Part shown: piece by piece, positions 12,199 through 26,174 of the stretch
Layout of the letters: each line of letters begins with the position of its first letter
Numbering within the stretch: the first letter of the stretch is position 1
Source: Eledone cirrhosa
Lineage: Eukaryota
Assembly (NCBI GenBank): GCA_964016885.1
Contig: OZ024748.1
Location: 620,001 to 684,000, forward strand
Reading direction: 5' to 3'
DNA length: 64,000 bases
Notes under the pieces: generated by a model
Databases searched by the model: none
Told to the model about the DNA's origin: nothing
Seen by the model: only the letters and a program-made list of their open reading frames with translations
Program-made: the position numbers and the translations under genes

Positions 12199-12872
12199 AT
12201 ATATATGCATGTATATAAATTAATCTGATACAAATATATATAATACAAGAATAGACATGAAAAACACAGTGATGCAGAAACATTTTATATTTATGTACAT
12301 ATATATAGCTCCATATATACCTATGTGCATGTGTGTGTGTGTGTGTGTGTGTGTACACTGGCGGCACTGTACCTATTTTTCTTTGAAGTTACTAAATTTA
12401 AATTCAAAACTTTCTACTTACTCTAAAAATGATGGTGATGATGACAGTGGTGGTGGTGGTGGTGATGATGATGCTGATGATGATAGTGGTGGTGGTGATG
12501 ATGGTGGTGGTGGTGGTAGTAATGATGATGGTGATGATGGTGGTGGTGGTGATGGTGATGATGATGAAGGCGGTGATGATGATGATGATGATGATGGTGG
12601 TGATAATGATGGTGATGATGACGATGATATTAATGCTTAGGGTGATATTGATGATGAAGATGATGATTTTGATGATGATGGTGATGATGATGATGATTTT
12701 TCATTAAATGTTTAATTTTTATTTTAAATATATTTTTTTACAATATTTTATTATTTCAGTGAGGGTCACGAGGTGTTGGTGGCAGTGGGAGGTAAGTGAT
12801 GTTTGAAAAAATATAATTAAGTCAAGATTGAAATTGTTGATTTTTCTTTTAATTAAAAGAAGAAAAAACGTC

Positions 12873-12959: not shown

Positions 12960-13472
12960 TGAACCCTAACAACATAATTAAAGTGACAATTACTTAGATT
13001 TATGGTGGATTGGTCGTAGCATCGGTAGAGCATCGGACAACATGCTTTGTGACTTTGAGATACGGTGCTTTATGTTCTGAGTTCAAATCCCGCCGAGGTT
13101 AACTTTGCCTTTCATCCTTACGGGGTTGATAAAATAAAGTACCAGTAATACACTGGGGTCAATTTAATTAACTTTCATTACTATCTTATTACCAGTAAGA
13201 TAAATAGCTCAATGTAATAACATCGGTTGTTTTACAGAGCAGTTATATAGAAAGTACATGAATCAAAGTTCAGTTTAAATCATTTATTTGCTTACAATTG
13301 TTTCCTCCAAACCGAGGTTTGGATTCTTCGGAGCAACTATTTAGTGATTTATAACATACTTGACCTCCTTTTCAACACAAGAGACATATAAAAACATATG
13401 CATATATTGACCCACAGTGGTTTGGAGGAAACAATTGTAAGCAAATAAATGATTTAAACTGAACTTTGATTA
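12960..13472 (-). mobile_element. PLE pLTR plus tail with short inverted arm, interrupted by a SINE
   Basis: Homologous to 46310-46580; hammerhead fold at 13288-13336 (minus); inverted partial arm at 13419-13472. Confidence 0.75.
13003..13172 (+). mobile_element. tRNA-derived SINE, family A
   Basis: GGTGGATTGGTCGTAGCATCGGTAGAGC...GAGTTCAAATCC...GCCTTTCATCCTTACGGGGTTGATAAAATAAAGTACCAG. Confidence 0.85.
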
Positions 13473-13505
13473 TTGTAATCTATATATATATATATATATA
13501 TATAT

Positions 13506-14388
13506 ATGCTGGGTAAATATTCTATAGCTGTTGATCGTGAATAGATGGCTGTCGTTTATTTATCTATTATTTCTTCATAGGTGCCTTTTAATCTTATAGC
13601 CTGGTTTAATTGTTTTTTTTGTGGTTGATTATGCTGTTTGGGAGAGGAAATAGTGTATATATCTTATCAAATGATTCTATGGACATAATTTATAGTATAT
13701 CGCTCTGATTATTTAATTTATTAATTCATCATTGAGCCACATCATGAATGGTTGCCAAAAACATATATATCTATGACTTTGTCTAGTTTGTGTATATGTA
13801 AATCTTTATATTTGATAATCTCTCATAAGGTTGAGATGCAATTTAGGCAATATTAGGCTGCGCTTTCTAGCAACCAGCCCACTCGCCGTAAGGCACCAAT
13901 CACATTCTTTCTGACTTGACCACTGCCACGTCACAGTTTTAGCCATTTTGAATTCGTTTCTTGCGGGGATCATTTAAGAAAAATCTTCGTCCAAGTAAGT
14001 TTGTTTCCTGATGATTTCGAAGCTCAGAAATTTATCCTTGATCGGATATTTCCAAAAAGCGAATGAAACCCTAAAGGGTAGAAACGTAATCCTGGTATGT
14101 TTATATGCATTTTTTCTTCTAACTTTAATTTTATACCTAATTGTGTATGGTTGACGATAGATTTAATCGATTTCCATGTGGTATTGAAATGCTGGGTAAA
14201 TATTCTATAGCTCTTGATCGCAAATAGATGGCTGTCATTTATTTATCTATTATTTCTTCATAGGTGCCTTTTAATCTTATAGCCTGGTTTAATTGTTTTT
14301 TTTTTTGTGTGGTTGATTATGCTGTTTGGGAGAGGAAATAGTGTATATATCTTATCAAATGATTCTATGGACATAATTTATAGTATAT
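13506..14388 (+). mobile_element. Non-coding ~683-bp unit with ~195-bp terminal direct repeat and internal hammerhead (retrozyme-like or PLE pLTR partial tandem)
   Basis: 13506-13700 repeated at 14189-14388; flanked by (TA)n; no ORF. Confidence 0.8.
14003..14085 (+). ncRNA. Type I hammerhead ribozyme with extended helix II
   Basis: gtttc-CTGATGA-tttcg...cgaat-GAAA-ccctaaaggg-TA-gaaac. Confidence 0.8.
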
Positions 14389-14491
14389 ATATATGTATAG
14401 TAATAATAAATGTGAAGACTAAAATCTGAAGAGGGCTTGATAAGGATTATATATATTTATACACACGCACATATATATTACTTGGACAGTT

Positions 14492-14545
14492 GGCTTCCTG
14501 ATGATTATTTCTCTCGAATGAAACAGTTCTAGTCCTGTAGAAGCC
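14492..14545 (+). ncRNA. Type I hammerhead ribozyme in a short pLTR remnant (~14480-14628)
   Basis: ggcttc-CTGATGA-..-GAAA-cagttctagtcctg-TA-gaagcc; helix II eroded. Confidence 0.7.
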
Positions 14546-14700
14546 TTTTCTATATTAAATATTTATACTCTGCTTTGTATTGAGTACCTTACTTACTGTG
14601 GTTACCCCCGATTGAACGCGGGCTAAATTTATATATATATATACACAGACACACAATATATACATATATATATAGTGAAATATATATAGTGATATATATA

Positions 14701-24877: not shown

Positions 24878-24880
<3 letters not shown>

Positions 24881-26153
24881 ATAATAATAAATTTGAAGAC
24901 TAAAATCCAAAGAGGGCTCGATAAGGATAAATATATATCAAATATATAAAGAACCGTAGAGCAAATATTTATTAAAATAACAGATTAAAGTTTAAGCAAA
25001 GAATCGCTGCTTTCACCCTTAACGGGATCTTCTGAAACTAACAAAGTCAATCTGTAAACGCAGAACCGGATATTTCAAAAAGCGTTGCAACCGGAGGAAG
25101 ACAGGAAGACGATACTTTGGTTCGTGGAAACGTTCGCTATGCAAATAAGCTCTTGCTCGAAGTGGATTTGTCGATAAGGTAGCATATACAGAGTACGAAA
25201 ATAGACCTAGAAGAAATAGATCCCATCGCATTTGTTGGTATAACCCACCATATAATATGGAGGTGGCCACACCATAAGCTAAGATCTTTCTTTCCCTTAT
25301 TACGAAGCATTTTCCCCCTACACATAAATATAGTAAAATTTTTAATAGAAATACTATTAAAATTTCTTACTCTACGACTCCTAACCTTGCACATAACATC
25401 ACAGCTTCAAATTTAGCTAAACTACCTAGCCGTAGGAACACGTGCAACCCTGTAGTTAGTACTAACTGTAATTGTAGGAATCGGGTTGATTGCCCCCTAT
25501 CCGGGAAATGCCTCTCTAGTAACATTGTCTACAAATGTAAGGTTGTAACACCCATAGGGCCTACATAGGGTTAACCGCCAATAGATTCAAGCAGCGTCTT
25601 TACATGCATACCCATTCTTTTCGTTACCCTCTAAGAAGGAATATGACGTCACTTTCAGCTTATATCTGGAGTCTAAAAGACAACCACACCCAATATAAGT
25701 TACACTGGGAGATCCTAGCTAGGGCTAGATCGTATAATGGAAATAAAAGACCATGTGACCTCTGCGCCGCTGAGGCCCTGGAAATACTCTACGCCACAGA
25801 CCACATCTTAAACAAAAAATCTGAGGCAATTTCGGCTTGTAAACATAAATTGCACAAAACTTTCCTGTATTACAGCCCCACGTTATACCCTAACGGATAG
25901 TACGATCTATACGTGGATATTTTACATCTTGATGTGGGAGCTAAGTATATGTTTTGTTTATTCCTTTACTTATTTGCATAGCAAATGTTTCCACGAACCA
26001 AAGTATCGTCTTCCTGTCTTCCTCCGGTTGCAACGTTTTTTGAAATATCCAGTTCTGCGTTTACAGATTGACTTTGTTAGTTTCAGAAGATCCCGTTAAG
26101 GGTGAAAGCAGCGATTCTTTGCTTAAACTTTAATCTGTTATTTTAATAAATAT
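24878..26153 (+). mobile_element. Naiad-type PLE 3' fragment flanked by inverted pLTRs, with tail at left
   Basis: Arms 24965-25149 and 25970-26153; internal WYNPPY..KIFNRNTIKISYS..CNC..CPL.G.C..IVYKC..YIGLT..FKQR..TSLSAYIWSLKD..CDLC..LNKKSE..CKH. Confidence 0.9.
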
Positions 26154-26174
26154 ATATATATATATATATATATA

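Follow-up and report, generated by a model that had tools for sequence, protein, structure and literature searches.

Metazoan non-LTR retrozymes, their circular RNAs and the hypothesis that PLEs mobilize them have been published (Cervera and de la Pena 2020, PMC7229834; Li et al. 2026, 10.64898/2026.07.22.740005). In the available portions of these reports, such retrozymes have no ORF, carry one type I hammerhead per unit, and occur as head-to-tail units of low GC content that are predicted to form self-paired circles, in genomes that also harbor PLEs. The published signature of PLE copies combines inverted 5′ copies and partial tandems with a tail that is confined to one end (Craig et al. 2021, PMC8557442). 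The PLE tail is the stretch between two start sites of reverse transcription (Frangieh et al. 2024, PMC11167929). The role of the hammerhead in PLEs, the origin of PLE tandems and the enzyme that moves animal retrozymes are described as open questions in the accessible parts of the published work.

Here we describe a unit from a 64,000-nt stretch of Eledone cirrhosa DNA (the window) that resembles retrozymes in each of these respects, with a GC content of 33.5%. It also has the same U·U at the base of helix II as axolotl HHR_Amex2 (PMC7229834). Its monomer of ∼685 nt exceeds the 170–400 nt given in PMC7229834 but lies within the 51–972 nt given in 10.64898/2026.07.22.740005. In contrast to the described retrozymes, the element is mostly dispersed, as insertions ranging from less than one unit to three units, and its circle is a predicted one. 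A cis signal, a PLE clade-specific motif and a 5′-end footprint are not given for retrozymes in the available text of either report. The window unit is real, and it is probably a variant of the non-LTR retrozyme kind.

The element also resembles Hydra-clade PLEs as they appear in the available text of PMC8557442. Both use (TA)n targets, carry the hammerhead close to the 3′ end, and form partial tandems and inverted 5′ copies. Both also have an optional tail and, as found in this analysis, the same bulged hairpin after the 3′ end; the word “hairpin” does not occur in the text or supplement of that paper. The element differs in having no ORF, in its longer tail (110 nt versus 30–40 nt) and in the position of its hammerhead, which is located ∼305 nt upstream of the main 3′ end (end 1) rather than 50–100 nt. 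Poseidon PAc of Anolis likewise initiates internally, at two sites on either side of the tail, needs RNA downstream from the start and has AT-rich targets, as here (PMC11167929). However, hammerhead mutants of Poseidon PAc left in vitro insertion unaffected, whereas ∼3 in 10 passes over the present element end at the cut. Within the same portion of that report, RNA-seq of Poseidon PAc gave no reads ending at the hammerhead cut. Non-autonomous Chlamys elements such as MRC1 (PMC8557442) also depend on PLEs and have no ORF, and they too show pLTR-like redundancy and head-to-tail copies, but Chlamys is another clade, most of whose members are without hammerheads. The available part of PMC13282606 does not mention ribozymes. 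In the literature, we found no description of the Hydra hairpin, of a 5′-end pile-up at a PLE hammerhead or of this family; subscription papers and supplements may hold one.

The locus and its dispersed family

The window copy comprises 1.3 units of the ORF-less repeat, on the forward strand, between (TA)n tracts at 13481–13507 and 14385–14398. The left tract is also the 3′ end of an adjoining related insertion. The original prediction described a terminal redundancy between these tracts, and the two repeats, A (13506–13700) and A′ (14189–14388), indeed align with 95.5% identity over 200 columns (E = 2e-89). Their spacing is 683 nt, and 688 nt past a 5-nt indel in a T-run, in agreement with the predicted ∼683-nt monomer and ∼1.3 turns. 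With the monomer numbered from q1 at position 13702, the hammerhead cut falls at q379|q380 and end 1 at q687. Repeat A is the final 200 nt (q488–687) of a 5′-truncated upstream unit, and the terminus of A′ is the fixed 3′ end of the family. As also predicted, the unit has no coding capacity: its longest stop-to-stop frame is 72 aa, and none matches the PLE protein P0002. Repeat A lacks a hammerhead and the locus has only one, so that the window copy cannot itself yield a cut-to-cut monomer.

The (TA)n neighborhood at 13207–14625 contains four related insertions, nested together. On the left, at 13207–13488 on the reverse strand, another family with the same hairpin (13207–13240) and an inverted 5′ copy adjoins the ∼685-nt element. 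On the right, a third family contributes an inverted tail, and at about 14482–14625 on the forward strand lies the end of an autonomous Hydra-type PLE with a hammerhead (14492–14545), a hairpin (14567–14585) and a tail. Further upstream, a repeat at 13000–13170, which we take to be SINE-like, recurs in many flanks. A 32-nt segment at 12760–12791, flanked by AG and GTAAGT, is a possible small exon; the element may sit in an intron on the sense strand. Elsewhere in the window, a 5′-truncated Hydra-type PLE with an inverted pLTR, a tail and a GCTC-type hairpin occupies 24878–26155, and there are many further hammerhead cores with the palindromic stem III typical of PLE ends.

A search of the 3.0-Gb genome with the unit returned 4,255 first-look candidates, of which the best 40 were scored and have 93–96% identity. 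Three short parts of the unit gave 1,308, 1,680 and 1,579 candidates, and the 33-nt 3′ end has 158 exact matches, compared with 0 for a control. These figures are lower bounds or candidate counts rather than copy numbers. Across 117 segments, divergence from the majority sequence averages 3.2%. Three sequencing runs, which are contigs of one sample, carry thousands of pieces on the element and yield no copy number.

The 5′ ends were examined in the first 100 of the 158 exact 3′-end matches, a set in which the 5′ side is unselected. The 5′ ends are ragged and the 3′ end is fixed, which is the pattern anticipated for a dispersed family whose copies stop just upstream of the hairpin. More than one unit is present in 18 of the 100 copies, as had also been foreseen, and the junction between end 1 and the hairpin is always identical and seamless. 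An inverted 5′ copy occurs in 14 of the 100. TA repeats are found at the 5′ flank of 59 of 85 non-inverted copies; at the 3′ flank of this set TA was required by the search pattern, and it was seen unselected in other sets. A second fixed 3′ end (end 2), not anticipated by the original prediction, lies at q110 and defines a 110-nt tail between the two ends (13702–13811 in the window copy, forward strand). Nine of 18 distinct insertions end at q99–118, six of them at q110/111; these 18 were obtained from 30 loci, of which 12 represent one duplicated segment and 2 a single locus. Most end-2 insertions have an inverted copy, and on the opposite side this copy closes at end 1. Together, the fixed 3′ end, partial tandems, inverted 5′ copies and optional tail read, from copy structure, as the structure of a PLE.

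Among 220 family loci (redundant), 13 matches to PLE ORFs were found. Twelve of these are separated from the element by TA tracts and one (L028) is fused to it mid-ORF, and for this reason the unit is considered non-autonomous. No copy in the 220 loci forms the pLTR of an ORF, in agreement with the original prediction. In all tandem copies seen, the tail leads into the same 685-nt non-coding unit and never into an ORF. Head-to-tail tandems with two complete hammerheads exist at the family level (L263/L015 and L014/L021), with up to ∼3 units. Two hammerheads are present in only 1 of the 100 copies, however, which means that few loci could be sources and that the window copy is not one of them.

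Sister families without ORFs were also observed (L138:731-1330, L159:1700-1890, L193:7181-8001 and L062). They include a 486-nt hammerhead unit with a homologous tail and 74–83% diverged relatives of the monomer. At G000:C25:4.87-7.30 Mb (L062–L073), twelve near-identical segments carry a tail and an inverted diverged copy, and were spread by segmental duplication.

The bulged hairpin and the Hydra clade

Directly after end 1, at 13702–13737 on the forward strand, the unit carries a bulged hairpin of the form GCTC-TGAT...ATCA-TT-GAGC. The predicted hairpin is recovered as the minimum free energy fold (−6.1 kcal/mol), but it is weak on its own (z = −1.7; 11 of 200 shuffles are as good), and its significance derives from its presence in other families. 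When 1.06 Mb of redundant loci were scanned for RYTC-stem-loop-stem-TY-GARY, a motif set post hoc from these same loci, 232 matches in 23 clusters were obtained, compared with 9–18 matches in five shuffles. Control scans with a 0-, 1- or 3-nt bulge gave 50–58 unclustered matches, so that the bulge size is not proven by the scan alone. Position provides a test that is not circular: in eight families, the ends joined to (TA)n fall no more than ∼10 nt upstream of the hairpin. Both the lower and the upper stem covary between families (G-C/A-U and C-G/U-A).

The families with this hairpin include two autonomous PLEs, P0002 and L186, and a third case is found on an ORF fragment in the window. Proteins of the autonomous PLEs carry RW(R), DKT and CxCX5C, and their insertions are located in (TA)n. 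These features define the Hydra clade and place the autonomous PLEs there by motif; an initial assignment to Neptune was abandoned. Searches of Pfam and the PDB returned no name for P0001 or P0002, and a metagenome scan with P0002 found no relative. Inspection by eye of six published Hydra consensi revealed the hairpin in three, from coral and sea cucumber: Hydra-2_Amil, with a TT bulge, and Hydra-1_Ajap and Hydra-2_Ajap, with a TA bulge. It is present in part in Hydra-1_Crog and not clearly in Hydra-1_Amil or Hydra-1_Obim.

The hammerhead of the L186 family, found beside the element, has the same core context as that of the unit. Comparison of the unit with pLTRs of the autonomous families revealed only this core context and the hairpin as common parts, and with pLTRs of the P0002 family nothing beyond the hairpin. 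At L028 (L028:1031-1376; G000:C4:281312004-281312349), a 345-nt piece of a Hydra ORF with a 140-nt internal gap is joined without a spacer to q561 on the same strand, and the ORF does not continue past the element. This single case may represent a template switch between the two RNAs, and it is possible that the chimera names the mobilizing family. That Hydra family has 696 candidates with 90–96% identity, suggesting an age similar to that of the element, and two of its copies are without their 3′ ends. A Hydra protein piece, used as a query, gave 92,561 first-look candidates in the genome.

We propose that the 36-nt hairpin is a candidate protein-binding signal at the start of reverse transcription. 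The link between hairpin and PLE machinery that was originally predicted is supported by these sequence comparisons, and it can be narrowed to the Hydra clade.

The hammerhead and a candidate footprint of cleavage

Every part of a type I hammerhead is present at 14003–14085 on the forward strand, with cleavage expected between 14080 and 14081, exactly as first proposed. Stem I is formed by 14003–07 and 14081–85, followed by CUGAUGA, a long stem II with U·U at its base, GAAA, a 4-bp stem III, and GUA before the cut. The forced hammerhead fold (−13.9 kcal/mol) is 0.4 kcal/mol from the free fold (−14.3 kcal/mol), and the fold z-score of the region is about 0 and thus uninformative. Rfam gave no matches at gathering score in the window, the hammerhead included. 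Of 57 distinct copies, 42 have an intact core, and at the base of stem II 49 have U·U, 7 have G-C and 1 has U-C, with the G-C and U-C forms probably reflecting one event.

The cut is a site of 5′-end pile-up among the copies, a feature that the original prediction did not include. This was measured in 99 copies, the 100 picked by their 3′ end only minus one of a duplicated pair. Twenty begin at q378–397, placing them 0–17 nt past the cut, and five begin exactly at q380, whereas none begins in the 32 nt before the cut (q346–377). Of the copies that reach the ribozyme, 18/64 stop in the cut region, and the per-base stop rate there is 7.7 times that elsewhere (hazard ratio 7.7, p = 7e-12). TA-like sequence does not explain this excess. 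With a dimer query, 7 of the 20 rows reaching the second ribozyme start at query positions 682–702, where the cut is at 687; this set is length-selected and leaves out the self match, one duplicate, rows that are too short and four rows ending near one unit plus tail. Twelve of the 20 first-pass ends sit 5–17 nt past the cut and could be stem I stalls or the result of trimming. Copies ending at q380 hold the entire 3′ strand of stem I, which is what run-off at a cut 5′ end, rather than a stall, would produce. The copy ends suggest that the ribozyme cuts RNA during spread of the element, leaving a genomic footprint of in vivo cleavage.

Copies that start exactly at the cut (L081, L208, L227, L235 and L245) mostly have ATT just before them, the motif preferred by the anole PLE endonuclease in the available text of PMC11167929. 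A second pile-up after exactly one turn (6 ends, q1–7) is confounded by TA microhomology and is not claimed.

The RNA template and the proposed life cycle

We favor, with a probability of roughly 0.6, a reading in which the unit is a non-autonomous, protein-free retroelement, a non-LTR retrozyme with a ∼685-nt monomer, that is moved by the RT-endonuclease of a Hydra-clade PLE and uses a predicted circle as template. A multi-unit copy would be transcribed and, to judge from the strong genomic footprint, its hammerhead would cut the RNA after 14080. By analogy, cut-to-cut monomers would then be ligated into circles. The Hydra protein would bind the bulged hairpin and nick a (TA)n tract, and the copies place the start of target-primed reverse transcription at end 1, immediately upstream of the hairpin, or at end 2, ∼110 nt downstream. 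From copy structure, the RT probably runs off at the cut on ∼3 in 10 passes and otherwise crosses the seamless junction, for up to ∼3 units; the window copy would be 1.3 turns begun at end 1.

All 57 read-through copies cross the cut junction without an indel, and this counts for a circle. So does the start upstream of the hairpin, which would shorten linear progeny, whereas circling would restore the hairpin-bearing junction and second hammerhead that are otherwise lost. Adjacent units have rare variants in common at a frequency of 4.5/kb (25 in 5,553 nt, 32 pairs), compared with 0.21/kb between insertions. Thirteen of the 25 come from one locus, L103, without which the frequency is 2.4/kb (12 in 4,924 nt). 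Local duplication, conversion or a source array that is homogeneous would likewise leave adjacent units with common rare variants. The cut-to-cut monomer is predicted to fold as a circle at z = −4.5 (30 shuffles), and stems II and III stay free in this fold. If circles were the only template, no copy should stop at the cut on the second pass; 7/20 do, so that cut linear templates must be used too. A mixture of circles and cut linear RNA fits all of the observations, and at near even odds the circle is the likeliest template for multi-unit copies.

The same element, hairpin and Hydra machinery could operate without a circle if the templates were linear multimers, transcribed from one or a few master arrays and partly cut by the hammerhead. 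We consider this unlikely. It would accommodate the seamless junctions and the about equal stops on the two passes, which fit independent partial cleavage, and the main in vitro substrate of the anole PLE is unprocessed RNA (available text of PMC11167929). However, linear multimers need a source of at least three units plus the hairpin, and among the best 40 of 4,616 candidates no long source array was found, the longest having ∼3 units; assembly collapse or loss could be responsible. They also face several subfamilies, in each of which adjacent units are concordant. A scheme restricted to cut linear monomers is improbable; here, copies longer than one unit would arise when the RT, on reaching the cut 5′ end, jumped to the 3′ end of that monomer or of a different one. 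Such jumping accounts for stops at every pass and for the common rare variants, and L028 and the inverted copies point to an RT that switches templates. Non-LTR RT jumps often add or drop bases, though, and the exact read-through junctions speak against them, as does the 2′,3′-cyclic phosphate that hammerhead cleavage leaves.

Two further readings fare worse. The units might be ordinary pLTR debris left by an autonomous PLE, if copies bearing its ORF were missed; the hammerhead would then be only a roadblock at which the RT stalls. Only the best 40 candidates were scored per search, the hammerhead and hairpin resemble those of Hydra pLTRs, and the 12 of 20 stops located downstream from stem I are compatible with a roadblock. 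Nevertheless, we regard this reading as very improbable given the 13 PLE-ORF matches in the 220 loci and the TA tracts that separate 12 of them, the tails that enter the non-coding unit, and the five copies that stop exactly at the scissile bond. The terminal direct repeats at the locus, the fixed end and the tandems could also bring to mind a TRIM (miniature LTR element), in which A and A′ would be the LTRs, or a rolling-circle DNA element of the Helitron type, but the chance of either is negligible. Repeat length differs from copy to copy, and neither class features inverted 5′ copies, a tail or ends that fall at an RNA cleavage site. A TRIM or LTR retrozyme was ruled out because the LTR length is not constant and the hammerhead is of type I rather than type III.

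If the favored reading, a Hydra-mobilized retrozyme copied from circles, is extended to the clade as a whole, Hydra PLEs would set the start of reverse transcription by one bulged hairpin conserved across molluscs, cnidarians and echinoderms, and hammerhead-cut, circularizing RNAs bearing this hairpin would parasitize them. The copies would then record the cut, the circle and more-than-unit copying, giving the first genome-level sign of germ-line cleavage, and circles would explain PLE tandems and pLTRs. We advance this wider view tentatively and with some doubt. The family offers a cleavage footprint that can be counted, points to one clade and supplies a candidate signal of 36 nt, along with two exact start sites. 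A 685-nt RNA and one protein would suffice to test both the circle model and recognition by the RT, and the value of the family lies in making an open mechanism testable. The findings also suggest that a compact cis element could serve a telomerase-related RT with (TA)n targets.
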